A stretch of DNA of 53,417 nucleotides, counting the filler, from Squatina squatina (taxonomy: Eukaryota): the NCBI GenBank assembly GCA_031763465.1. It is 3 parts of 3 records of this genome, joined end to end, with 100 filler letters (N's around TTAATTAATTAA, not from the genome) between each part and the next. Parts side by side here need not be neighbours in the genome. Positions count along the whole stretch, not along the records: positions 1 to 16,387 come from JARFOE010000235.1; 2 more parts are not named here. One strand, written 5' to 3'. Under the pieces are notes generated by a model. That model did not search any database, was not told where the DNA came from, and worked only from the letters and a program-made list of their open reading frames with translations. The translations under genes were made by a program, and so were the position numbers. Numbering within the stretch: the stretch's first letter is position 1; each line of letters begins with the position of its first letter. Below are positions 1,319-47,333 of this stretch, piece after piece.

Positions 1319-1596
1319 CCCTGGTTAGTGATCTCTCTGCTAAGGGAAATAGGACCTGCCGATCCACTCTATCTCGGCCCCTCGTAGTTTTATACACCTC
1401 AATTAGGTCTCCCCTCAGCCTCCTCTGTTCCACAGAGAACAACTCCAGTCTATCCTATCTTTCCTCATAGCTAAAATTCTCCAGTCCTGGCAACATCCTC
1501 GTAAATCTCCTCTGTACCCTCTCTGGTGTAATCACATCTTTCCTGTAATGCGGTGACCTGAACTGTACGCAGCACTCTAGCTGTGGCCGAATAGTG
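1319..1596 (-). mobile_element. CR1-clade LINE, C-terminal ORF2 fragment
   Basis: Translation FSVEQRRLRGDLIEVYKTTRGRDRVDRQVLFPL is the typical CR1 motif FSLExRRLRGDLIEVYK. Confidence 0.9.
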
Positions 1597-1625
1597 TATA
1601 TTCTAAATTAAAAAAACAGAAAAAT

Positions 1626-3383
1626 TTGGAGCAGGAGTTGGACAATGTCTCTGTTGGCTTACAGACAGAACCAAGACCTAACCAAGGACTGCCAGTTATC
1701 CAGAGTCCACCTCCTTCCCCTGCACACCGTGAGCCCACCTACCGATCAAGCTCGCCTCTCAACTCCCACCAAGTTTTTGACTACAGACCAAACCCTTCAA
1801 TCTCCTCCCCGACTCGGCAGGGGTACCAATCTACGTCGCCTTCACTTTCTCCTACTCACCAGAATTCTAATTATCGGCCTAGTCCTCCGCCTACCTCCCC
1901 TGCTCATCAGGGGTCTTCGTATCGCTTTAGCCCACCCACAGTGGGTGGACAAAGCAAAGAATATCAGTCAAGTCCCCCTCCTTCACCATTGCGTAGAGCC
2001 CCACAATACAGAGCCAGTCCTCCTGCAGATAGTATGAGTGTATATAGGCCTCAGTCTGGCTCCCCAGTTCGGTATCAACAAGAACCCACCATAGGTCAGC
2101 TTCCCGGTAGACCAAAGTCTCCTTTATCCAAAATGGCACAAAGACCCTATCAATTATCTCAGCCTCCATCAGGTCTACCCCAACAAGGGCTTAGATTACA
2201 ACCAGCCAAGGCCCAAATTGTACGCACTAACCAACCCAGTTCTGCAGTGCATTCTAGTGCTGTTATACTTGGTGGTGCCTACAACCAGGGGCCCCACTCC
2301 ATGAGCACCAAGCATCAATCGTCTTCAGTTGATATGGCTCCTACTCAAAGCCGCCTGGTTTACCAGCCTGTAATGGGCGGAGTGGTGGCAGACAGCANNN
2401 NNNNNNNNNNNNNNNNNNNNNNNNNNNNNNNNNNNNNNNNNNNNNNNNNNNNNNNNNNNNNNNNNNNNNNNNNNNNNNNNNNNNNNNNNNNNNNNNNNNN
2501 NNNNNNNNNNNNNNNNNNNNNNNNNNNNNNNNNNNNNNNNNNNNNNNNNNNNNNNNNNNAGTCTGCTTCGTATTATCCTGTTTCCCACTCCAAGCACGAA
2601 TTAGATAGGTCCTCTGTACCATCAAGCCAGACTGCATCTCCAGATGTATCTCACATGATCAGGAGGGCGCTCACCGTGAATGCTCCAGAAATTAAACCTC
2701 ACCCACCAACCCCTCGACCACTGCTCCATTCTCAAAGCACTGGCCTTCGATTTTCCCCCTCTAACAATAGCCTTTCTTCAAGCTCCAATGTTGTGTCTTC
2801 ATTCCGACCTTCTGCTTCCATCCAGCAGATGGAGATTCCACTCAAGCCCTCTTATGAAAGCCGATCCTGTGAAGAACAGTCCCCCATCTCTCCAACACAA
2901 GGCTACCCCGGAGATTCTGGTCGCTCCAGGACCACGCCTTTCATGGGGATCATAGATAAAACAGCACGGACACAGCAATACACTCACATGCACCAGCAGA
3001 GCCGGACGTGGGCTGTGTCCTCTGTCGACACTGTCATCACCAGCCCCACTTCCTCTGGGGGGATGTCCCCCCAGTCTGGCTCATATAGTCCACCCCCAGT
3101 CAGTAATATTGCTTTCTTCAATAAGACTAACAATGCCNNNNNNNNCCACCTGATAGAGGATGACATGTGCATCTCCCATGGGAAGCTGACCAATGGATCC
3201 CGGGCAGAGATGTTGGAGAGGGTTAGTCAGGCTCCCTCGTACCCAGATGTGAAGGTGGCTAGAACATTGCCTGTTGCACAGGCATACCAGGACAGCATAT
3301 ATCGGCAGCTTTCCAGAGACTCACGACAAGGGCCAAAGTCACCTTTAAAACCAAAGAGACCGTTCGTAGAGTCAAATGTATAA
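1626..3383 (+). CDS. TANC2: TANC2, 5'-partial terminal coding exon (Pro/Ser-rich C-terminus)
   Basis: Colinear with vertebrate TANC2 as recalled: [64 protein letters not shown] and the C-terminal [13 protein letters not shown]-binding motif. The TTG at 1626 is not a true start. Two internal gaps keep the frame. Confidence 0.95.
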
Positions 3384-11185: not shown

Positions 11186-11540
11186 TCAAGGATGTCCATG
11201 GAGTATTCTCTGTGGTGTGACATTAATACCCGGGCTGAACAAGGGATACAGTGTCTCTGTGAACGTAACTTTGAATGTGTACATGACGTTCATGTGGTCA
11301 GCATTGTAAAAGGAGACCTGCCCGCCTTCGTAGTCAAGGTAAACTCCAATTTTGCTGGGCTTTAACCCTGAAAAGATTACCACACGTGGCGCAGAGTTTG
11401 CCACGTAGTGAGTGTTTTTTTTCTCCATAGTCCATAAACCATCTTGAGGTGATAGCGAGATTGGTGTCTTGCGTTCCACAGACTCTTTGGTCACTCCTAA
11501 GATCCAGTCAGCCTTGCATCCCACAAAGACTTCCCAGTAG
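11186..11540 (-). CDS. TRIM terminal exon, B30.2/PRY-SPRY domain (5' part lost in gap)
   Basis: YWEVFVGCKADWILGVTKESVERK...KIGVYLDYEGGQVSFYNAD..YTF..TFTETLYPLFSP contains the hallmark WEV and LDYE motifs. Stop codon at 11186-11188. Confidence 0.92.
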
Positions 11541-12050
11541 NNNNNNNNNNNNNNNNNNNNNNNNNNNNNNNNNNNNNNNNNNNNNNNNNNNNNNNNNNNN
11601 NNNNNNNNNNNNNNNNNNNNNNNNNNNNNNNNNNNNNNNNTGAAATAAAATTGGGTGAGGGGATGTCAGTGCTGGAATGCTACTGCCACATGTCCCCTGG
11701 CTAAGGGCAGTTAACCCCCTTCCTATCCTCTCCAGTATTTTTGGAGCTGGATGCTTGAGGTGTATGAGACATGACTCATTGGTAAGTTCATCCCCCCACC
11801 ACCTCCCACTTCCCACGTGGAGATATACCCAACTTCCATTATGTCATTTCCCTGACACCGTGATTGAATTTGGGGCCAAGAGAGTCAAAAAAAAAATCAG
11901 AAGTGCACACCGATGTCCTGTTTTTCACAACAGATTCAAGCACCAACCAATTTAAAATTCAAGCAGAGCAATTGACTGTAGTGGGGCGGGGGTGTGTATG
12001 AATAAATGGATGGCTGCCAATTTGCATGACTAGGCTGTAAAATACTTAAC

Positions 12051-12284
12051 CATTAGGAATAGTATGGCATCTTCTTGAATAAGGTCCTCACTGACTGCTT
12101 GAATGGCGTCTGATAATGAAGTAGATTCGAAGGTCAGGTGCATAATGATTTCTTCCAGCACCGTGAAGCGCTGCCAGGCGTCATTGTGGAGCTCCTGCAT
12201 AATATTTTCCTCTTCCATTCTCAGGAACTCATGAAGACGCACAAAGACCCTCCCAATGCGCTGCTCTGTCATTGATACTTCATC
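12051..12284 (-). CDS. TRIM coiled-coil exon (234 bp, phase 0/0)
   Basis: Splice sites ttctag|GATGAA and CTAATG|gttaag. The peptide DEVSMTEQRIGRVFVRLHEFLRMEEE...EDAILFLM has the F-x2-LH-x-FL-x2-EE and terminal FL signature, and the size is typical of this TRIM exon. Confidence 0.85.
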
Positions 12285-12584
12285 CTAGAAAAAGTAACCA
12301 CAACACGTGGTGTTGAACTAGCAAGGTGAAGGAGGGGAGAGCAGGAGAGTGAGAGAAGGAAGGAGGCTAAGAGTGAGAGAGCAGGATTGAAGGAAAGAAG
12401 AGACACCGCAGCCCCTGGTATANNNNNNNNNNNNNNNNNNNNNNNNNNNNNNNNNNNNNNNNNNNNNNNNNNNNNNNNNNNNNNNNNNNNNNNNNNNNNN
12501 NNNNNNNNNNNNNNNNNNNNNNCTGAAATATTGGGCCCATGCTTTTATTATCCCAGATTCCCCTATTATAGCTCCTTATTATAG

Positions 12585-12752
12585 TCTCAGTGGTAACACT
12601 CTCGCCTCTGAGTCAGAAAGTTGTGCGTTCTACTCCCACTCCAGAGACTTGAGCACAAAATCCAGGCTGATACCCGAGTGCAGTACTGAGGAAGTGCTGC
12701 ACTGTAAATCCTGAGCTCATGAAAGGCGCTATATAAATGCAAGTCTTTCTTT
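12585..12752 (+). mobile_element. Internally deleted SacSINE1/DeuSINE-like tRNA-derived SINE
   Basis: A tRNA-like head (ctcagtggtaacactctcgcctctgagtcagaaagttgtgcgttc) is joined directly to the tail gaaaggcgctatataaatgcaagtctttctt. Homologous to the copies at 15357 and 48935. Confidence 0.75.
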
Positions 12753-12788: not shown

Positions 12789-13301
12789 CTTATAGTATCG
12801 AGCAGCTTCATTGATGGGATAAACTCGATGGTTCTTGTGCTTGTTTGAGTCCCTGCAGATTAGGCAAATTAACTCTTGGTCATCTTCACAAAAGAGCTTC
12901 AGCTTCTCCTTGTGCTGAGGACACATGTCGTAATCCTTGGGGTAAAAGCCAAGTGAAGAGGCATCTGGGCTCAACGACCAAAGAAGCACAATTACAAAAA
13001 TGAGGATGACGAGAAGCAGGAATCCAAAATTATTGTCTCCACTTGACTCGGTTTCTTCCGAGCTGTTCTCTTTCTTTGACTGAAGTATCTCGACCACACA
13101 GGCCAGCGTGCGATTAGTTCTCAGTGTGCCTGAGGAATACTGTCGACACAATGGGCAGATGGATGTCTCCTCCCTGTCCCAATACTCTGTTATACAGGGT
13201 CTGCAGAAGTCATGTTCACACTCTGTGGTGACTGGATCTTTAAATGTATCCAGACATATCGAGCATGAGAACTGGTTTCTGATGTCGTCTTCGACAGACA
13301 T
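12789..13301 (-). CDS. TRIM first coding exon: C3HC4 RING, hydrophobic segment, B-box2 (TRIM35/39/RFP-like class IV)
   Basis: Kozak context gcaccATG. RING CSIC-x11-CEH-x2-CRPC-x12-CPLC. B-box CPQH-x7-CEDD-x4-CLIC-x5-H-x2-H. The exon ends EAARYYK|gtaact at the usual position. Confidence 0.93.
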
Positions 13302-13495
13302 GGTGCGAGTTGAGCTGTGGTAACTTTAGCAGCTTAGTGCTGACTCGCTCTTCCTGCTTCCAGTCTTCCAATTCCANNNNNNNNNNNNNNNNNNNNNNNN
13401 NNNNNNNNNNNNNNNNNNNNNNNNNNNNNNNNNNNNNNNNNNNNNNNNNNNNNNNNNNNNNNNNNNNNNNNNNNNNACTGAGACCACCAAAATCA

Positions 13496-15781: not shown

Positions 15782-15918
15782 GCATTCATGGGGTGCTATG
15801 CAGTGGTTCTTTATTACCTATTGGTTGTTCAGGAGGTGATCGAGATCAACAAGGAAGGTGTTGGATCCTACTGTGCCGGGCTACTTTAACCAGCTCTTCC
15901 CTCCTTCTGATTTTCCAG

Positions 15919-16142
15919 AATCAAACAGTGCACAACAGTCACTATGGAGCAGCTCTTCACAGTGCACCACGAGATGGGCCACGTGGAATACTACCTTCAG
16001 TACAAGGATCAACCAGTCAGCTTCAGGAGTGGAGCCAACCCAGGCTTCCATGAAGCAATCGGAGACGTGATGGCGCTCTCGGTCTCCACTCCCACGCATT
16101 TGAAGAAAATCGGACTACTGGATAATATCGTGGAGGACGAGG
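15919..16142 (+). CDS. ACE: Angiotensin-converting enzyme internal exon with zinc-binding HEMGH motif (N-domain type)
   Basis: 224-bp exon with ttttccag|A and G|gtaaga. It encodes [69 protein letters not shown] indicates ACE rather than ACE2 (GANEGFHEAVG), and VTMxQL, YYLQ and KIGLLD indicate the N-domain. Confidence 0.95.
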
Positions 16143-16202
16143 GTAAGAGGGATGCTCGCGGTACAGAAAGATGAGTGACAGATCAGGCTCGGGCTTAAGG
16201 AT

Positions 16203-16640: not shown

Positions 16641-16940
16641 CTGACAAAAAACAATATCCTCTGATTTCATAGCTTGTTGGTGCTGTCGCTATAATGGCTA
16701 GAACTGCGGTACTGGCCCTTTTTTTAAGGCACCACTGCTAATGGTTAATGAGTTGGGTCAGCACTAAAGGCACCAGTGCCAGTGGCTGAAATGGTTGATG
16801 GGTTGCACCAGGTACTAAATCAGTTGTCACTCCACTAGCGTCTTGACCTTTTTTTGTTCAGTTACAGTTTCTGCTATGTCCACGGATCTTTCCTGTTGCT
16901 TGGTGACTTTGAATAACTGCGATGGCTTTTGTAATCTCAG

Positions 16941-17132
16941 GTGGAACTCTCTATGGAAGACATAGAAACCATTTTGAACACATTGATATACGATGGGAAG
17001 GTGGAGATGACTATCATAGCTGCAAAGGAAGGCACTGTCGGTAGCGTGGATGGACAAATGAAGCTGTATCGAGCAGTTAATCCCATCATCCAGCCCACCG
17101 GCCTGATGCGGACACCTTGTGGGATGTGCCCA
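16941..17132 (+). CDS. POLR3F: RNA polymerase III subunit RPC6, internal exon (192 bp, phase 0/0)
   Basis: Splice sites ctcag|GTG and CCA|gtaagt. Encodes VELSMEDIETILNTLIYDGKVEMTIIAAKEGTVGSVDGQMKLYRAVNPIIQPTGLMRTPCGMCP, which includes the first two cysteines of the C-terminal Fe-S motif. Confidence 0.96.
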
Positions 17133-17514
17133 GTAAGTGTGCCCTCTTCTGGGTTTAGTAGAATGTTGCCTGTTTTAATTGTACTCTGAACATCCAGCTT
17201 ACTCCATCCCACTTGGGAGAGGGAAATGATTGGAGTTGGAGAACTACTGTTACTTTATCAATGCAGAGGATCCTCAACAGCCCAGTACCTTTACATTTAG
17301 CCACTGAATCAGATCAGGCAGATACAATAGTGTACAGTTCTACAGGCCTCAGTTATGCAGGTCATTTAGTCTAAAGATTTTTGTGGTTGATGCATTTCAG
17401 GGAATGAACTTTTTCCTCTTTGCTTTCTGTGCCTCTGTTTGGATTAGTTTGGGAGTTTATTTCTGTGTTACATGATCCATGTTATATATAACACCGTGTG
17501 ATTGATTTGACGAC

Positions 17515-28312: not shown

Positions 28313-29526
28313 TTGGGTGAACATTTTTATTTTAAAATGTGGCTGCACTTCTCTTTTCAAAGCTACATTCCAAAATGTTATATTCTGAAATAAATCGATC
28401 TAATTTACATTTTGATCAAAGCAATACTTCCACCATCTCCCTAAGGAGCCTGTTTCATACATTCACCAGGCGCTCACTGAAATGTTGACGTCAATGGAAA
28501 GTAAAATCAGGTGTATAATGGGCGACTGATCAGATATCACCTGTTTTATGCCATCGACAAAAGTTAAGATACGCCGGTGGGTGTCAATACAAAAGCAGCT
28601 TACAACTAACTTTCACATCTATTTTTGCTTTACTTCAAGTGCTGTTGATTCCTGTTTGTTCAATATTTTTGTTTTAACAGTGAATACTGATGATACAGCC
28701 AGGGAAAGCTGTCTTGGCAGAGTTCCTGAGCCCAGCTACAGCAAAGGAGCTAAATCAGCCGGACCTGTTTGTTACCAATTTAAATCCCTCAAACTGTCAG
28801 GAATGGCGAATGGTCCAAGACTGTTCCCATTATTATAGCATCAGGAGGACAAAGCTATTAAGGACACAGAGAACTGGTAAAGGAATCAACAATAGTGTGA
28901 CATTTAAAGAGATTGTGATAGCGAGACTCCCTCTTGTGGTTTGGTAAAAATAAAATCCCAACTTTTATGGTGAGGCAGGCAATTGATCTTTTGCTTCACC
29001 ATCTCATTAAATCAGGTGTCAGTGCCAGATGTATGCTCTGTTGTAGCAAGGCAGTAACTCTGTGAGTCATGTAACAGAATTTAGGCAATCTAATTACTGC
29101 ACAGCTTTTCCCAAACAGAGGAAATGAAATAAATTATTCAGTGCAAAGTCAAATTTGTGCCATTTCAGCAAGGTAAGGTCGGTGTAATGCTCAATAACAG
29201 CATCCCTTTTGATGGCCTATACATTAGGCTGTATTCATTCACCATGTTATGGACATGGCATCTCATTTATGGACCTCATCCTCCTTAAGGAAAAAATACT
29301 AAATTACAGGATAGAAGAACAGCACATTTGTTCATGTTATGTTAGTGGGCTAAAATAGGAGTGCATTACCCACCGACAGCCATTGCAAGGCCAGGAATTT
29401 GTACTGCATGGAATCAGGCACTGATCCAGCCAACAATATCCAAATACTTTAGCATCCGTTATAATATTTAATACTGTGATGACAATTCTCTCAATGTACC
29501 TGTTAAAAATGGAGGAAGGAGAGAGA

Positions 29527-30457
29527 AGGGAACCATTGAATGCTGCACTGAACCCAGCCAGAGTCAGCACCTTCAGGGGAGGAGAGTGAGGGGAACCAGT
29601 GAGTGTAGAACATGAACCCAGCCAGAGTCAGCTCCTTCAGGGGAGGACAGGGAGGGGAATCAGTGAGTGCAAAACTGAACCCATCCAGAGTCAGCACCTT
29701 CCGGGGAGGAGAGGGTGGGGAACCAGTGAATGTAGAACTGAACCCAGCCAGACTCAGCAACTTCAAGGGAGGAGAGGGAGGGGAACCAGTGAGTGTCGAA
29801 CTGAACCCAGCCAGAGTCAGCTCCTTCAGGGGAGGAGAGGGGAACCAGTGAGTGTAGAACTGAACCCAGCCAGAGTCAGCTCCTTCAGTGGAGGAGAGGG
29901 GAACCATTGAGCATGGAACTCAGCCCAGCCAGAGTCAGCACCTTCAGGGATGGAGAGGGAGGGGAACCAGTGAATGCAGCACTGATCCCAGCCAGAATCA
30001 GCTCCTTCAGGGGAGGACAGGGAGGTGAACCAGTGAGTTTGGAACTGAACCCAGCCAGACTCAGCAACTTCAGGGGAGGAGAGAGAGAGGAAGCAGTGAG
30101 TGCAGAACTGAACCCTTGCCAGAGTCAGCACCTTCAGGGGCGGAGAGGGAGGGGAACCAGTGAGTTTGGAACTGAACCCAGCCAGACTCAGCACCTTCAG
30201 GGGACGAGAGAGAGAGGCGAACCAGTGAGTGTAGAATTGAGCCCAGCCAGAGTCAGCTCCTTCAGGGGAGGAGAGGGGAACCATTGAGCATAGAACTCAG
30301 CCCAGCCAGAGTCAGCACCTTCAGGGATTGAGAGTGAGGGGAACCAGTGAATGCAGCACTGATCCCAGCCAGAATCAGCTCCTTCAGGGGAGGACAGGGA
30401 GGGGAACCAGTGAGTGTAGAACTGAACCCAGCCAGAGTCAGCACCTTCAGGGGCGGA
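29527..30457. repeat. Minisatellite, ~15 units of ~59-65 bp (mode ~63), running into a gap
   Basis: Approximate unit: gggaaccagtgagtgtagaactgaacccagccagagtcagc(a/t)ccttcaggggaggagagggag. Confidence 0.97.
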
Positions 30458-32406
30458 NNNNNNNNNNNNNNNNNNNNNNNNNNNNNNNNNNNNNNNNNNN
30501 NNNNNNNNNNNNNNNNNNNNNNNNNNNNNNNNNNNNNNNNNNNNNNNNNNNNNNNNNCAAAAAATTTGTAAGGATTTTTAAAGGCCACAATATGCTCACA
30601 GAAAACTAAGCACATATATATGATTTTGTCTTTTAAAATATACAGCCGATAAGGGCCAACAAAATGGCTATAATCTCTTTAATCAACCAATACACCTGCT
30701 ACAGATCCTCTGCTCAGTCCAAGGCTTTCAACAGTACACACAGGTTCAGTAACCGTGCAACACAATGTGGAGTATATTCCAATTACTTCAGTCAGTCTGT
30801 CTATCTTGTTATCTGTACCAAATACAATTCTGTAAAGTTACACTGCAGGGTCATTTTCTTAGCCATAAGGAACTATGCACTCATTAACCCATCACCAATC
30901 CTAAATGCTTAGTTAAAAGTAATACATCTAAATCAACTGGAAAATACTTTTTACTGTTGCAAAATGCATGCTTAAGAAACACTTAATCCTATGCAAAGAA
31001 AGAGAACCATCTATCTAAACAACCCAACAGCAGGAATTAAAATAGCCTGTAGAAGACATTATATTGAATACAGAAGTCCCTTAGACCCAATTGGTAGACG
31101 CTGGCTTTAAACAGCAACTGGTCTTGAATAAATTAAGGTCCAAAATGAATGATCGAATACCAAGTAGTAATTTAGGCTTCCAACACAGCATGTAGATGTT
31201 AGATTATCACCTGAATGTGACTACTTAGTGTTACAGATGATAGTAGGGCATCAAAGCATTGGAACAAGGCATGTGAGAGAAAGCTGGCCTTTATTTTGTT
31301 TGTGGCAGGCTCTAGTTTTGCATTGTACTAGGTTTTCCACACCACTGTTTATCCTTCTTCTCCCCATTAAACATAATTTTACATAAAATGTAAAGTGCAC
31401 TTAAAATATAGTACATTTCTNNNNNNNNNNNNNNNNNNNNNNNNNNNNNNNNNNNNNNNNNNNNNNNNNNNNNNNNNNNNNNNNNNNNNNNNNNNNNNNN
31501 NNNNNNNNNNNNNNNNNNNNNNNNNNNNNNNNNNNNNNNNNNNNNNNNNNNNNNNNNNNNNNNNNNNNNNNNNNNNNNNNNNNNNNNNNNNNNNNNNNNN
31601 NNNNNATTAATTAGGTAATAAGTATCTCAACTGTCAAATTTCATGGTGTGTTAGTGAGCCTAAAGTACATTAACTATTTCTTACTAGCTATGTTTTTCCA
31701 CCTGTAGGTCTAAGGGCACACAACTATGGCAACAGTTAGGCTGGGAAAATGAACATTCAGTTTCTTGTTAAGACCTGTTGTGTGAACTACTGGGGGCAAG
31801 AAAACAAGAAGTACTCAGAAATTGCTAACCCTATTCTCATAAGTATAATAGGTCCAATGCAGATTTAAAAACTGCATGGGCCGCTCAACAAGCATCAATA
31901 AAAATCAGGTACAGTATTGTATAAAATTCATTTTCACGTGTAACATTCCACTGAAGATTATAAAGGCACAATTAGGACTTCCTTTCTTTAAGGATTGGTC
32001 CTTTCAGAAGTATAGTTTTAAAAAACCTTTTTGGATTTGAGACTAATTTTTTTTAAATAAATGAATGCATACCCTCCCCTAATATTAAACACACTTTGAC
32101 AGAACACGCACCTCAATGTTCATCAATTTTACCAGGCAGGGAACAGGAACACCAATATTCTCTTTCTCCAGCCAAATATATCTTTCCGTCTAGTGTGAAG
32201 AACTCCCATTCAAAAGTTCTCACAAAGCTTTGCAACAAAAATCTTAAGAGTTGTTGGGCACAGTGGTATTTGGCTGAATAAAAATGGACATAACTGGTCC
32301 TCAGAAATGAGACCATTGGTCAACTCCACCTGATGTGATGTTTCAAAGCAGCACCCTTTCAGTCAACATGTTTAACAAAAAACAATAACTCCAGAACTAA
32401 ACTAAC

Positions 32407-34592: not shown

Positions 34593-34812
34593 TATGAAAT
34601 GCATTATGAAATTGCAAAGAGTGCTGTAAAGTACATAATATCCTCATCAGTGGCTACACTGTCATTTCAAATGGTTAATTCAAATAGGCTTGTACACTGC
34701 GATCAATTAAAAGTCAAGCTTCAGTAAAATGAAATGAGCCTGAACAGGCTCAAACCGTGAACCAGGATGTTAAACATGTTGTGGAACAGTCACGCTCGAA
34801 AAGGCTCCTTAC

Positions 34813-35073
34813 CTAAAACTCCATTCGGCTCAATGGGATACTCCAGGATGGAAGTAGCTGGTGCCAGTGTGTAAGGATAGTCGTAAGGAGTATAGATTAG
34901 ACCAGCTTCAGGTGCAGAAGGCACTATTGCAGTCGGATGAGGGGACCCATTCGGCATGACTGTTGCTGTTTGAATTTGCCTAATTAGAGGCATAATAGTT
35001 GGACCAGCTGGTGTCGGGGCTCGCAAGGCAGCTGGTGGTAGAACCGACGTGGGCCCTGTAATGATCCGTGGAG
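34813..35073 (-). CDS. QKI: Quaking (KH/STAR RNA-binding protein), last common exon (exon 6), 5'-truncated by the spacer
   Basis: [67 protein letters not shown]|gtaagg. Confidence 0.96.
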
Positions 35074-35173
35074 NNNNNNNNNNNNNNNNNNNNNNNNNNN
35101 NNNNNNNNNNNNNNNNNTTAATTAATTAANNNNNNNNNNNNNNNNNNNNNNNNNNNNNNNNNNNNNNNNNNNN
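35074..35173. other. Artificial assembly spacer N44-TTAATTAATTAA-N44
   Basis: Exactly 100 bp, with the linker at 35118-35129. Confidence 0.95.
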
Positions 35174-40374: not shown

Positions 40375-40781
40375 TGATAAATAGGCTCCTCTACCACTCT
40401 TACATTACTGTCAATGAATTAAAATACTTTAGATTCCACTCTGTAGTAAACTTGAATCCTCACACTTGGTACTCTACATCTTGCAATTTAAGCTTTGAGG
40501 GCTAGAAATTCATCTCNNNNNNNNNNNNNNNNNNNNNNNNNNNNNNNNNNNNNNNNNNNNNNNNNNNNNNNNNNNNNNNNNNNNNNNNNNNNNNNNNNNN
40601 NNNNNNNNNNNNNNNNNNNNNNNNNNNNNNNNNNNNNNNNNNNNNNNNNNNNNNNNNNNNNNNNNNNNNNNNNNNNNNNNNNNNNNNNNNNNNNNNNNNN
40701 NNNNNNNNNNNNNNNNNNNNNNNNNNNNNNNNNNNNNNNNNNNNNNNNNNNNNNNNNNNNNNNNNNNNNNNNNNNNNNNNN

Positions 40782-43700
40782 GATGCACCAACTGGCGTAC
40801 ACAGAAGAGCTTCGGTCAGTTTGCTGCACAGGATTTGGCTTGGTGTATTTCAAGTAGCACCAACTGACATCAGTGGTTGTGTGAAGGCTCGAGAAGTGTA
40901 GGACCTGTTGGACATCGCTAACGTCCGTGACGAGAAAGGTGCTGGGCTTCACGGGGCTGGGGCTGGTGCTTGGCTCGGGTAAAGTGCTGGAGCTGAGTTG
41001 CTGAAGCTCTTGCAAGTGCAGAGGGGATCTCTCTCGGACCGTCTCCTGGGAATCTTCTTTCTTCACTGGGCCGAGAGGCATTTTACTTCTGTACTGATGT
41101 CCCGACCACTGCTTGTATTTCTCCGAAGGCCCAGGTGACTGCAGGGAGGACTGTAGGAGGGACAGAGTTTGCTTTGAACCAGAATCCCATTCTTGGGAGG
41201 TTTGAGTAGACGATGCCTTTGATTCAGCTGGGTGCTGTCTTGCCGGCTGAGGTTTCTGCAGTCTTGCAGTGTCCTCCGCCCTTGAATGTATTGCACTTAA
41301 ATGTTTAACTGGCTCAGTGCTCTCTTCTGATTCCTCTTCAATCTCTTCCTCCTTCACACGTTTTTGTTGCTGGGTCTCCATCGTCAGTTCTAAGCTACCT
41401 GCTGGAGACAACATCCGTTTGCTTCCGCCAATGGTAGACGGATAACTATCTGTTCCGTAAGTGCCCTCTGTTGGTGATGCAAGTGGTATATAACCCTTTC
41501 TTTCTGTCATGGGTAATGGTATTCTTAAGTATGGCGATTGGAACAAATCTCTGTGGTGGCCAGCAATCATCTGTGCCAAGTCGAGCCCTATCCCGTGCAT
41601 TGCCGCAGTACACACAAGGGTGCCTTTGGGCCTGCTGTCTTCCACTCTGCAGATGACCACTGTAGAAGGGCTTTCTGCCGACTGCGTCACCAACATTTGA
41701 GACAGAGTAGTGTACATTGGGCTCCCGTAGGTTGGCATGTGGGCCTGGACCCTGACGGGCACCACAAGTGATACCACAGNNNGCAGAGGCTCAGGAAATT
41801 CAGTAATTGAGGGCTGCGAGGCTGACAATGACACGGTGCCTGTGGATGGAACAGCGGAAGAATGGGCAGTGCTGGCTGCACCGTACTCGGACTGCGAGTG
41901 AAAAGGCGGTGAGCGAGAGGGAACGCGGATTGGGGGAGACAGATGGGACGGGTGCTTCTGCTCCCCGAAATGACCACCGGCTTCTGCCTGCAACTGAAAG
42001 GCAAGCTGTGAGTGCACTGGCAGGAAGATGGCTTGAGAAGCGGAGGTGGGAGCTGGCCGCTGCATGTGCAGGAGCGAAGAAGGATGAACTGGCAACTCCA
42101 CTGGCTGTGGTAGAAGCTGCTGTCCAACCTGGAGTTGCGTTTGCCTAAGGGGCAGCTGCGGCGATGAAAACAGAGGATATGGGACGTGAGGCACAGGCAT
42201 GGGAGTTGAAAGCACCTCTGGCATCCCCGGCGATGAAAGCAGTGACGATATCTGCCCTTGCTGCTGAAGGAGATGCTGACCTGGAAAAGCAGGGAGCTGC
42301 TGCGGCAAGTATTGCTTATGTTGCGGCACAGCTTGTGGTAATGGCTGCTGAAATACCTGGAAGGCCTCGATTGGTGGCTGGGTGTAAAACACTTGGGTCG
42401 CATCAGACTGCGGTTGCAAATCACTCGGCTGGCAGGAATGAGGCAACGAAGGAGGGGGAGAATGATAGTGAGAACTTGGACCATGAACAGAAGATTTACC
42501 TAAAGCGTGTGCTTGCTCATGTTTCTCTTGCCTTGCACCGGATTTGGGGTCTTGCTCAGATTCGGCGTACCCGCTGAGTGAAGTCTGGCGAACCAGGAAA
42601 CACCTTCTCCTTTCTTTCAAAGGGGAGAGGAGCTTAGGGCCCGAGGATGACTCAGAGGACAAACTGCCATAATCAAAAGACTTGCTGCGCACTTCAGGCG
42701 CTTCAGAAGGCTGTTGCCCGCTGGAGGCTTGTTCCGATGAGGACCGCCTCATTTCACGTTGGTGGTGGTAGTGACTGGGTACAGTCAGCATGTGCGAGCC
42801 CAGAGGCCTAGTGTGGATCTCGGATGGCTGCCCGGCAAGTTCCTTTAACGAGGTAGCTTCCGGCTTACAGTGCTCCTCCCTTTCAAATGATGCCGAGCGA
42901 CTCGAACCGTGGGAGATACTACTTTCTTGACTTGGGCTTCTCGTCAGCGTGACCGACTCGAAGCTCGATTCGCCCGAAGACTGCGACATTTCAGCCAAGC
43001 GCAGTCTCTTCTTTTTCGGCGGGAGCTTCTCTGTTGGAAACTGCGAAAGAGTTTGACTCCTCTGTGGCCATTGGAATTCTTCAGGTGGTTTTTCTGGCTC
43101 TTTAGCGCTCGCTTCTTTCTCCCTCTCTAATTTATCCGGCTCTTCCGTTACAAGGATTTCAGGTACCTGGATTTTCCGTTGGCGGACTAATCGGGCTTGT
43201 AAGGGATGATGATGATGGTGGTGATGACGAGAATGCTGAGAGACTGGTTGCCAAGTTCCAGTTGGTTCTACGTCACCTGTTTGTGAAGGATACTCGACTG
43301 ACAGGTTTTCTTGTGAACTCACACTGCTAAGGTGCTCTAGAGATTCTGATTTTTCAAAAGAACTGGGCCTGCTCAACGTGTTGGTGTGTTGGATGACGGA
43401 AATTTCCTTTCCANNNNNNNNNNNNNNNNNNNNNNNNNNNNNNNNNNNNNNNNNNNNNNNNNNNNNNNNNNNNNNNNNNNNNNNNNNNNNNNNNNNNNNN
43501 NNNNNNNNNNNNNNNNNNNNNNNNNNNNNNNNNNNNNNNNNNNNNNNNNNNNNNNNNNNNNNNNNNNNNNNNNNNNNNNNNNNNNNNNNNNNNNNNNNNN
43601 NNNNNNNNNNNNNNNNNNNNNNNNNNNNNNNNNNNNNNNNNNNNNNNNNNNNNNNNNNNNNNNNNNNNNNNNNNNNNNNNNNNNNNNNNNNNNNNNNNNN

Positions 43701-45754
43701 NNNNNNNNNNNNNNNNNNNNNNNNNNNNNNNNNNNNNNNNNNNNNNNNNNNNNNNNNNNNNNNNNNNNNNNNNACATCATGAGGTAGAGCCCTATGTTCT
43801 GCTTCCCGAGGAACGTGCGCCAGGTAGGGCCGGGATCTCGGTGCGTGCAATTCTGAGCAGTAATATTTCTTATGGGTTTCGTAGTTGTTCCGTTTCCGGT
43901 ACCGGGCCCCACAGATGTCACATTCATACATCAATCCTTTCACCCGTGGGCCTTTCTTGGTCTTTTTGGTGGGGTCGGACTCAGCAGGTTCTTGTTCTTC
44001 GCCAGGCCTGCTTGGCAGCGCCTGCGTCTCTTTCCCTGAATAACCACCTTCCTCCGTCTGATACTCCATCCCCGCAGGCAACTCAATTGCTTTTTGTCTC
44101 TTCAGCATGCGGTGGTGAGATATCAGCCCATGACTGAAGACCTGGTCGGGCTCCGTCATTCTATCGTCGAACGAGTAGCTTCCCTTGAACGCTGGCGGGA
44201 AACAGGTGCTACTTGCAGAAGGCATGGAGTTGCTTCTCATCAGAGGCACTGTTTCGGTGGCACTATGGACATGGTGGACCGCTGAGAATGTATGCCTGCT
44301 TGGATCTGAGCTCATGCTACTGGAGCCCAGTGACTTCAGGTCGAACTGAAAAGAATCTCTGGAGGTACTTGGCTTTGGAGACTCAATGCTACCGCGTCTG
44401 GATAATGAGGTCCTGCGAGGCTTGACGCTGTCGATCTGGCTGGTGTCCACCACTGCTTCGTTAATGGTGATGAGCTTGGTGATGTGTTCAATAACATTTT
44501 GTTCCATTTGGGCTTTAGGCACGGAAAATGAAAGTGCTCCAGGCTTGTCTTCAGAGGTCATCTGCGGCGCCCTCTGAGTCGCACTTGCCGCTATCATGGA
44601 TGTTCTCTGACCGTATCGACCATACTTTCCGAGAATAATCTCGGCGTAAGACTTTGCGCTCGTCTGCGGAGGACTGATTTGCAGCTCCGCACTTTCTGAC
44701 CGGGAGAAGTAACCCGACTCCGTGCTCCCTTTGCTCCCAGGGCTCAGAAACGTCTGGGACTGTTCGTCAGCTAACGCCTTCCTCCTCTCGCTGAGCCGCA
44801 GTGCTAGTTTTTGCTTAATAGTGTGCGAGTCTTCTGGCTTGTGGCTGAAGGAGAGGTCAAGGGAGGATTCCGAAACCTGTGAACCTTCGTCGAGAGACGG
44901 AGTTTCACTTGGCTGAGCTAACATACAGGCCGCTTGCCTTGGACTCGATTCCTGTGCACCAAATGAACTAGAGCCTGGAATGTGCTTATGTTTGGACGGC
45001 AGGTCGAGCGAGTGACCCGACATCCCAGAAGTCTCGTCTTCTGAATCTGTGCTTTCATCTCCTTCTGTATGCTCCTCGGGTTCGTCCCCACTGAGCTTCT
45101 CCATTTCTAGACTGGAGGTGCTTGTAAATGCCTCTCCTTTTGTGCCCGAGACCAGCCCTGCTTTGAGTTTATGAGCGTGAGATTTCCTATGTTTGTACAA
45201 ATTGCTTTTCGTCTTGAAAGAGAACCCACATGAATGGCAAGGGTAGGGGCGCTCACCTGTATGTGACCTGATGTGTTTTTGAAGCACGCTGGGCTTAGCG
45301 CAAGGTCGACTGCAGAACTGGCAAATGTACTTGCCGGGCTTTTGAGGCTTCTTGTCCTTTCTGGGCGCCTCCTCTTGTTTCAAAGTAACCTGAGTGGTAT
45401 GGTGGCCATAAACAGGTTGGGCAGACTGGGGGTCCTCTTTGGGAATGATGGGGGCACGGGAGGGAAGAAGGTGTCCATGTGAGTGAAGCCCGGAGTGTAT
45501 GAAAGGCCCGGAGGCAACAGGCCCCCTTGGGTCAAACAGCTGCCACGATCGTCTCTCAAGAGCGAGTTCTGGTTTTACCGCGGCCATGAATGCTGGTGGC
45601 ATGGGTTGTTGCAGGAGCTGCGGCGAGGCGTGGTGTGACTGCTCGTAGGAATAAGCGCTGGTGTGCTTTGGCTGGTCCGGTGTCGGGGCCTGTTGGTGAG
45701 CGCGCTCCGGGGGAATCTGCAGCGGTCCTGAAAAACACGGCTGGGACGGGATGA
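40782..45754 (-). CDS. HIVEP3: HIVEP3 (Schnurri-3), giant first coding exon, partial at both ends
   Basis: [58 protein letters not shown] (C2H2 pair), [31 protein letters not shown], the CCHC finger [24 protein letters not shown], and [27 protein letters not shown] and QRSQTL favour HIVEP3 over HIVEP1/2. Confidence 0.93.
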
Positions 45755-47333
45755 NNNNNNNNNNNNNNNNNNNNNNNNNNNNNNNNNNNNNNNNNNNNNN
45801 NNNNNNNNNNNNNNNNNNNNNNNNNNNNNNNNNNNNNNNNNNNNNNNNNNNNNNCTGATCATTTAAAAAGTCATGCTCCTTGTTCAAAGCCAATGCTGCT
45901 TTAAAAGGTGCCATCACCAACATACTTAATGCACAGAGTATCCAGTCTGCTCTGACATTTCTCATGTTCAAAGGCTCTCACGCTTTGCAGGGCAGAAAGA
46001 AAAGCTTTCAGCTCCTAAGCAACTAATGTTAAGGAAACACTAGAAAGCTTATTCAGCTGGGGGGGGGGGCAGCTTCTGCCTCCAAGGCAAATGAGAAAAT
46101 TGCAGATTAACTACCAGTTTTATTACTTACAGGAACAGGCTGAAACAGAGATCTGATCTCAATGCGGAAACAGCGTGTGTTAATATTTACACACCGTCAC
46201 GCTTCTACAGTACTTTAAAGCAGGCTCCACATCAATCTTGAGTATTAACTGACTGACACGGCACAACCACAGAGTGACATTTGCACATGAGAGAGAAAGA
46301 GCGAGAGAAATCAAGAAAAGGAACAGATAAAATCCTTTGCAGTCTGACCCACCNNNNNNNNNNATCATCTTGAATCCCCCCCCACTCTCTGCTATCTCGA
46401 TTCTGTCTCTGCAGTTCTGCACGATACAGCAGTCCATGAGGTGGGAACATGACAACAAGATACTGACACGGTTTGGTAGTAAAGTTATTTCAGTGCACCT
46501 TATTTGGTCTGTGATGTAAGAGGAAGTTCTGCAGTCAGTGCTGCCTCCTTTTTCCATTCACTACAACATTTCCTGTTGTCATTAGTTTTTTTGCAGCNNN
46601 NNNNNNNNNNNNNNNNNNNNNNNNNNNNNNNNNNNNNNNNNNNNNNNNNNNNNNNNNNNNNNNNNNNNNNNNNNNNNNNNNNNNNNNNNNNNNNNNNTCT
46701 TCAAGTACTGCTGTGGAGTTTTAGTAAAGTTAGCAAGCAGCTTGGTTTTCGGTGGAAAGTTTCATTATTGCATGCTACTGAAATTCAGATCGCTGGAAAT
46801 TCAGTCGAGTGTTAGAATTAACTTATCGTGACTGAACTTTAGTAACACCACTGGAGTCAGGTCGACAACATGACACAGCAATACTGGACTCCTGTCTCCC
46901 GGGTTTCACTTGAAGCCTTCACTACTTCAAAAAAAAAAATTCTTTTTGGAACAATCTTTTTTTTATTAATACCTGTCCCAGAAAAATTGCTTTTCCAAAT
47001 TAATTCTACCCCTGGAAATTTAAGGGCACAGGCACATTATGGGGAAAACCCCCCAGCAGGAAGCCTTCTGATGGATAAGATGCAGAGCCTCACTTGGTTC
47101 ACTCGGTGAATGAGCTACTGGCTGAGAAACTCACTTTCCTGCCTACTACCAGGTGAGTAAATCAGTGCCAAAAGCTACAAATCTGCTCGCGTTGTCAGCC
47201 ATCTGGATTTGTTTAACCGAAGGAACACACACTGGGCCACTTGGACAAAGGTCGAGCTTTCGAATGACTTGTTCATTTCCTCTGCGCTAAGTACTGCATT
47301 TTTATGTCTACCACACAGCAGCGGTGAAACATC

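Follow-up and report, generated by a model that had tools for sequence, protein, structure and literature searches.

The angel shark Squatina squatina carries a real, conserved and apparently undescribed gene: a class IV TRIM, with RING, B-box2, coiled coil and PRY-SPRY, that is predicted to be membrane-anchored and is most likely receptor-like. It lies in a stretch of 53,417 nucleotides, referred to here as the window, and its principal features are as follows.

12789..13301, minus strand: coding exon 1, 171 codons, with the RING, a post-RING helix, a TM-like insertion and B-box2 (translation, Pfam, and spliced contigs X1, X2 and X3)
13146..13265, minus strand: C3HC4 RING, residues 13-52 (Pfam E 2.9e-12)
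13029..13070, minus strand: acidic spacer with sequon N79, residues 78-91, predicted to be disordered and little conserved at 57% mean identity (alignment and model)
12972..13028, minus strand: 19-residue hydrophobic, non-amphipathic segment FGFLLLVILIFVIVLLWSL, residues 92-110, a predicted transmembrane helix (90% mean identity in orthologues)
12924..12971, minus strand: conserved post-TM stretch, residues 111-126, whose first Lys/Arg is K122 (alignment)
12813..12935, minus strand: B-box type 2, Pfam match at residues 123-163, ligands all intact (Pfam E 4.2e-12)
12051..12284, minus strand: exon 3 of 234 nt, encoding coiled coil and identical to Heptranchias (P0031) at 75 of 78 residues (alignment, spliced contigs)
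11186..11540, minus strand: 3' part of the last exon, SPRY and stop codon (Pfam SPRY E 5.1e-19)

A first-pass annotation had placed a transmembrane-like segment between RING and B-box within one gap-free exon, with intact zinc ligands and normal Kozak and donor contexts, and translation and Pfam scans bear this out. Exon 1 (13301..12789, minus strand) is 513 nt with zero N and encodes 171 amino acids; all eight RING and all eight B-box zinc-ligand positions are present, the ATG has an A at -3 and an in-frame stop nine codons upstream, and the donor site reads AAG/GTAACT. The segment is preceded by EETESSGDNN and followed by SPDASS. On the usual Kyte-Doolittle (KD) scale its mean is 3.11, and of the 37,482 19-mers free of stops in the window's six frames no other reaches 3.0. 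Its hydrophobicity is uniform, its hydrophobic moment is 0.08 and it has no central Pro or Gly, and a single membrane pass therefore fits. In the post-TM stretch, P112, A114 and S/T116 match a putative signal-peptidase-like (-5,-3,-1) pattern. Pfam scans gave no Ig or PA family, and the protein begins with the RING.

Of this gene, the window shows no more than exons 1 and 3 and the 3' portion of the last exon; these lie on three contigs with 100-N gaps between them, and the PRY half of the last exon falls in the N gap at 11541-11640. The full architecture is taken from orthologues and from spliced contigs of a relative, and not from the window alone; both PRY and SPRY are matched by Pfam in the orthologues P0031 and P0009. 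Contigs X1 and X3 (3,021 and 3,040 nt; two studies, one related species), which are presumed to be RNA, span 12789-13303 gap-free with 33 differences to the window, and continue after exon 1 with 95 letters absent from the window, the exon at 12051-12285, 311 more letters, and the SPRY part. Because they are without the window's introns they represent spliced forms, and the segment is thus present in spliced contigs of a related species, joined to the coiled-coil and SPRY exons. Two skate proteins, each complete at 507 aa, lie on contigs as short as 2,488 and 2,440 nt, which also points to transcripts. Removal of the segment by splicing was considered and rejected, as exon positions 151-276 upstream of it hold no donor-like GT[AG]AG, GTAA or GTGA and the contigs are gap-free over the exon; rare isoforms may skip it. 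Also rejected were an assembly or frame artefact, the segment being found again in 16 species and in the spliced contigs, and an overlapping plus-strand gene, since there are stops in all three plus frames.

We note some further properties of this locus. The window has 43 N runs, many of exactly 100, and its short contigs are often centred on exons, so that gene order and distances cannot be trusted as synteny. A repeat in intron 1 (window 12590-12750) has matches in numerous contigs of each of the four runs and is probably a SINE-like element. In the window SPRY (11189-11539, minus strand), 8 of 117 residues are found in none of 17 orthologues, compared with 1 of 78 in exon 3, and four of these novel residues lie within the last ten (F492V, L495Q, V500G and N501H); a relaxed or shifted B30.2 in Squatina and assembly errors are both possible.

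A first protein search gave 25 matches among 263 candidates, 12 of them at 87-99% identity across the whole of exon 1, from sharks, skates, rays, a sawfish and Callorhinchus; the window exon itself is identical to that of Heptranchias at 170 of 171 residues. An orthologue is present in 17 species, with exon 1 modelled in 16 (the Rhincodon model begins after it), and the segment is retained in all 16, including the chimaera Callorhinchus. Its KD mean is 2.83-3.33 in these 16 orthologues and 2.51 in a stingray paralogue, and the best hydrophobic window of every full-length orthologue starts at residues 90-92. The RING zinc ligands are invariant in 16 of 16 orthologues together with I15, L17, W41, P50 and R53, which we take to be E2-docking residues, as are all eight B-box ligand positions. 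Mean identity among ten full-length orthologues is 96% in the RING, 94% in the post-RING helix, 57% in the acidic spacer, 90% in the TM segment, 90% in the post-TM stretch, 91% in the B-box, 73% in the coiled coil and 72% in PRY-SPRY. Within and after the segment, V103-S109, S111, P112, A114, S115 and L117 are invariant in all 16 and position 116 is S or T only; the N-terminal half of the segment tolerates Ser, seen in 4 of 16 species, and the paralogue has Asn/Ser there. As aligned, the constancy of the segment's C-terminal half and of the residues after it is greater than an anchor alone would need.

The stingray paralogue (P0015 and P0038, from Hemitrygon and Hypanus) keeps the RING, the TM segment and N198, and has lost B30.2 and acquired H130R in the B-box. 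Retention of RING and TM with loss of B30.2 suggests that the RING and anchor are the retained core, and the paralogue may serve as a decoy or act as a membrane ligase on its own. Its B-box is degenerate, its coiled coil is present, and it sits on a long branch in the tree. An alternative Callorhinchus model in UniRef (P0014) is missing the residues from RING to TM and retains the TM; an isoform or an artefact of gene prediction could explain it.

The segment lies in an insertion of ~37 residues. Compared with TRIM21 (5olm), residues 10-85 align with 16-91 and residues 125-163 with 93-131, leaving residues 86-124 in the place of one TRIM21 residue. The RING-B-box linker is 74 aa long here, compared with a median of 37 aa for 104 linkers of the closest other TRIMs among the matches listed, in which the highest KD is 0.51. 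A wider comparison set was drawn from the best 150 of 8,564 representative-search matches, the best 120 of 566 profile-search matches and two further searches; in it the maximum linker KD is 1.43 (281 linkers, 243 of 263 non-orthogroup proteins, best matches listed), and none of these 281 RING-B-box linkers of other TRIMs has a segment of such hydrophobicity. Among the examined sequences, then, the insertion is confined to the chondrichthyan clade, although a distant TRIM may have gained an anchor independently, given that the set contains only best-ranked matches. A search of the ESM Atlas returned only generic TRIM clusters, with values of <0.8 for the linker.

A careful 34-row tree supports the clade at 100/100, with a stem of 0.74, short inner branches and Callorhinchus basal. 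No sister group was resolved in this tree or in a 64-row quick tree; rows were hand-picked from search matches, among which bony-vertebrate TRIMs were few. One teleost protein (P0120), with a polar linker of similar length, was tried as an orthologue and rejected, as it falls outside the clade, in a group with other shark TRIMs and a protein from Megalops. The orthologues carry automatic names such as 'A33-like', 'nuclear factor 7-like' and 'TRIM39-like'.

AlphaFold2 modelling of the orthologue P0031 with a 119-row alignment (mean pLDDT 83.5, pTM 0.52) predicts normal TRIM domains, the coiled coil being a helix at 163-271, and fold matches to TRIM72, TRIM20, TRIM21 PRY-SPRY and butyrophilin B30.2. 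Residues 92-109 form a lone helix of moderate confidence with disordered linkers on both sides; the helix is isolated and straight, and the other domains are well folded.

Our preferred reading, held tentatively and at close to an even chance, is that the segment is an uncleaved type II single-pass anchor, with the RING cytosolic and the B-box, coiled coil and B30.2 luminal or extracellular, in agreement with the receptor-like, single-pass alternative raised in the first-pass annotation. The evidence comes in part from sequons, in an alignment of 17 orthologues and one paralogue. N198 and N348 (Heptranchias numbering) are both present in 17 of 17 covering rows; among 90 control TRIMs they occur in 2 and 3, respectively, although these controls are mostly from one expanded shark clade and so are not independent. 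In the window, N gaps stand in the place of both sites, which are visible only in orthologues. Their columns are mostly K and D in the controls, and the X and S/T positions of the sequons vary. N198 stands for a Lys at a polar coiled-coil position, and N348 sits in a turn between two strands of the AlphaFold2 model. A further sequon, N491, is found in 10 of 17, compared with 4 of 90 controls. Among lineage-specific Asn columns (172-500) the sequon columns are invariant in 2 of 2 cases and the others in 0 of 9 (Fisher p 0.018), and column shuffling gives p 0.004 (172-500) and 0.014 (111-500); these tests are post hoc, having been chosen after the alignment was seen, significance is gone at a 75% conservation threshold (p 0.25-0.34), and two B-box Asn residues that lie in no sequon are invariant as well. 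The mean number of Cys residues after the B-box is ~1.2, compared with 3.3 in the controls, and no basic residue occurs within 11 residues after the segment in the 18 sequences listed. The retention of RING ligands and docking residues indicates that the RING probably acts in the cytosol. The available part of PMC2139883, citing Denzer 1995, states that a stably folded N-terminal domain impedes N-terminal translocation, and PMC8379923, in the portion accessible to us, that a zinc finger stops translocation.

Several observations run counter to type II, and some of them favour the opposite, type III orientation, in which the RING would be luminal and the B-box, coiled coil and B30.2 cytosolic as in butyrophilins, giving a membrane sensor or scaffold whose RING is no ligase. 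The invariance of all eight B-box ligands is awkward in an oxidising lumen, and an intact B-box would suit type III. Sequons also precede the segment: N63 in 17 of 17, compared with 0 of 90 controls, and N79 in 13 of 15. However, an N63-type sequon is also found in 24 of 291 post-RING motifs of other TRIMs. Shuffling of these RING-side sequons gives p 0.11-0.18. The 15 residues before the segment have a net charge of 0 to -4, negative in most species, and this acidic N-flank, with a C minus N charge difference that lies between 0 and +2 for 14 of 16 orthologues (+2 in the window), points the same way, as does the strong hydrophobicity, since long, very hydrophobic segments favour N-terminal translocation (PMC2139883, in the part available). 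Butyrophilin structures, by their titles, have B30.2 in the cytosol. We nonetheless regard type III as rather unlikely: the folded zinc domain would impede translocation (the same accessible parts of PMC8379923 and PMC2139883), the invariant RING docking residues would be pointless in the lumen, there is no basic cluster after the segment, and stingrays gain a Lys two residues before it.

A tether held in one leaflet of the ER, a lipid droplet or another organelle, monotopic or re-entrant, would leave all domains of an otherwise normal TRIM in the cytosol and both intact zinc domains in a reducing compartment. The polar residues tolerated in the N-terminal half, Ser in 4 of 16 orthologues and Asn/Ser in the paralogue, fit such a tether, which we consider unlikely because the segment has 19 residues with a moment of 0.08, no central Pro or Gly and one straight predicted helix, and because the invariant sequons N198 and N348 would be left unexplained. 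It is distinctly unlikely that a type II protein is cut by signal peptidase after S116, leaving a RING-TM ligase stub and releasing a B-box/coiled-coil/B30.2 glycoprotein. The downstream sequons support this equally well, and it would account for the invariance of V103-S109, S111, P112, A114, S115 and L117 and the restriction of 116 to S/T; small residues at -3 and -1 are retained in the paralogue, albeit with -2 turned to Asp, and there is a PRY-SPRY protein in a secretion, ohanin, which was purified from venom (PMC12730704, accessible part). Against cleavage, the hydrophobic stretch usually measures 7-15 residues in a cleaved signal and 19-27 in an anchor (PMC2139883, available part), compared with 17-19 here, and the segment sits 91 residues from the protein start. 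Highly improbable is a soluble protein in which the segment is buried in a partner or oligomer and never enters a membrane; an identity of 90% exceeds the need of hydrophobicity alone and suggests a specific contact, but the segment has a KD of 3.1 over 19 residues and no hydrophilic face, and the model shows no packing partner, only disordered linkers around the segment. As a separate observation, a paper on stingray venom glands names 'vespryn/ohanin' matches without sequences in its accessible part (PMC4768133), and no connection to the TRIM gene can be drawn from it.

With the type II reading, a mechanism can be proposed. The RING would fold on zinc during translation and become untranslocatable, so that the chain downstream of the segment would enter the ER and receive N-glycans at N198 and N348 (Heptranchias numbering). 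The coiled coil would build the usual antiparallel TRIM dimer in the lumen, spacing two anchors and their RINGs apart, and such dimers would cluster when B30.2 binds a multivalent ligand in the lumen or outside the cell. RINGs of neighbouring dimers, which are predicted ligases with intact docking residues, would then pair in the cytosol and ubiquitinate the protein itself or a membrane neighbour, leading to sorting, degradation or signalling. In TRIM21, clustering on a target pairs RINGs and activates the ligase, and the RING is inhibited by the B-box (bioRxiv 10.1101/2020.07.28.225359, available part); here the membrane would also lift that inhibition, as the B-box could not reach the RING. 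The scenario as a whole is plausible, although its chance falls somewhat short of even: in an ancestral cartilaginous fish, the insertion of ~37 residues into exon 1 would have made a cytosolic TRIM into a transmembrane receptor-ligase, with a glycosylated B30.2 sensing a luminal or extracellular ligand and clustering activating the cytosolic RING, and the protein would have stayed near-unchanged since the chimaera-shark split.

The gene had been labelled a candidate immune ligase, and the immune label is unsupported. In the searches there is one slow-evolving gene per species (matches listed), the stingray paralogue excepted, forming a single clade apart from the expanded A33-like TRIM cluster, and in five of five species the two are on different contigs; the sizes of the gene and A33-like contigs are 106.7 and 163.5 Mb in Scyliorhinus canicula, 47.2 and 96.3 Mb in Cetorhinus, 111.7 and 140.6 Mb in Mustelus, 37.8 and 21.1 Mb in Heptranchias, and 41.8 and 31.9 Mb in Stegostoma. 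A single-copy, slow-evolving gene outside the cluster is not the pattern of a virus-driven family, and while an immune role is not indicated by these data, the gene may have one.

The first-pass annotation also raised an origin of the segment by micro-inversion of a polar linker. The antisense peptide QRPKKHNYKNEDDEKQESK is real and lies in a short stop-bounded frame, but the proposed origin was rejected, because the similarity of QRPKKHNYKNEDDEKQESK to 91 canonical linkers is no better than that of codon shuffles (p 0.70 for the mean, 0.37 for the best). Compared with random synonymous recoding p is 0.06 and 0.05. Both comparisons are weak after long divergence. The middle base is T in 16 of 19 segment codons, which forces the antisense to be polar.

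Several other features were seen in the window. On the plus strand there is an exon of the angiotensin-converting-enzyme family at 15911-16171 (Pfam Peptidase_M2, E 1.2e-39), an RNA polymerase III Rpc34 exon at 16935-17186 (Pfam E 2.3e-13), and a long proline/serine-rich frame at 1581-3383, which has no Pfam match over 1581-2396 and ends in ESNV, resembling a PDZ-binding tail. On the minus strand, a very long exon with C2H2 fingers at 40488-45977 is presumably HIVEP-like, and one at 34790-35125 we assume to be of the QKI family; neither has a Pfam match in the parts scanned. Tandem repeats at 29500-30600 are seen as recurring peptides in several frames.

TRIM ligases are known to act as sensors in the cytosol or the nucleus. 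If the type II reading is true, an old and fixed TRIM with a membrane between its sensor and its ligase would represent a new type of receptor and a natural counterpart of a membrane-crossing Trim-Away, and would offer a direct test of B-box and B30.2 function in the secretory pathway. Any topology would be of note, giving a luminal zinc finger, an unusual 19-residue monotopic anchor, or a protein cut in two. Among the sequences examined, the gene is also an innovation specific to the cartilaginous-fish lineage, strongly constrained and hidden by automatic names.

The domain order is shared with class IV TRIMs such as TRIM21, TRIM72/MG53, TRIM39 and the A33/nuclear factor 7-like proteins, and TRIM21 RING-B-box is the best PDB sequence match of exon 1; the nearest named relatives outside the clade are at 31-37% identity (best 120 of 566 matches). 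The short polar RING-B-box linker of soluble class IV members, a typical trait and not a formal criterion of the class, is replaced here. TRIM13 and TRIM59 of class XI are likewise membrane-anchored TRIM ligases, although these have a C-terminal anchor, a wholly cytosolic RBCC and no B30.2, whereas here the best hydrophobic window starts at residues 90-92 and B30.2 is present. RNF43, ZNRF3 and RNF128/GRAIL are type I proteins with a signal peptide, a PA ectodomain and a C-terminal RING-H2; if the type II reading holds, the likeness is of a ligand part outside, a RING inside and one pass, and the difference is of a type II protein whose C3HC4 RING is N-terminal and whose ectodomain is a B30.2 carried by a coiled coil. 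The butyrophilins BTN2A1 and BTN3A1 have a TM followed by a coiled coil and B30.2 as here, and butyrophilins have Ig ectodomains, a signal peptide, a cytosolic B30.2 and no RING or B-box. Neither a signal peptide nor the Ig or PA ectodomain of the butyrophilins and PA-TM-RING proteins was found in the protein described here.

We found no description of a RING-TM-B-box-CC-B30.2 architecture or gene in the open literature, to which, with few subscription papers, the search extended, and the accessible parts of PMC10445537, PMC8005608, PMC4768133 and PMC12730704 contain nothing on it. The novelty claimed at first thus stands for the architecture in the literature searched, but a partial precedent, zebrafish btr31, had been missed. 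That gene derives from class IV TRIMs and has a predicted TM between RING and B30.2 (Boudinot et al. 2011, PMC3137616, available part, as for what follows), and the publication of btr31 means that a membrane between these domains is not wholly unprecedented. Its authors note that the membrane would part the RING from B30.2, with consequences unknown; it has no B-boxes or coiled coil, its TM is on a separate inserted exon, it is a recent duplicate of btr32, and its function is unknown. By comparison with that description, the gene reported here has an intact B-box and coiled coil, carries its TM inside exon 1, and is common to holocephalans and elasmobranchs, and we infer that the TM segments of btr31 and of the chondrichthyan gene had independent origins.
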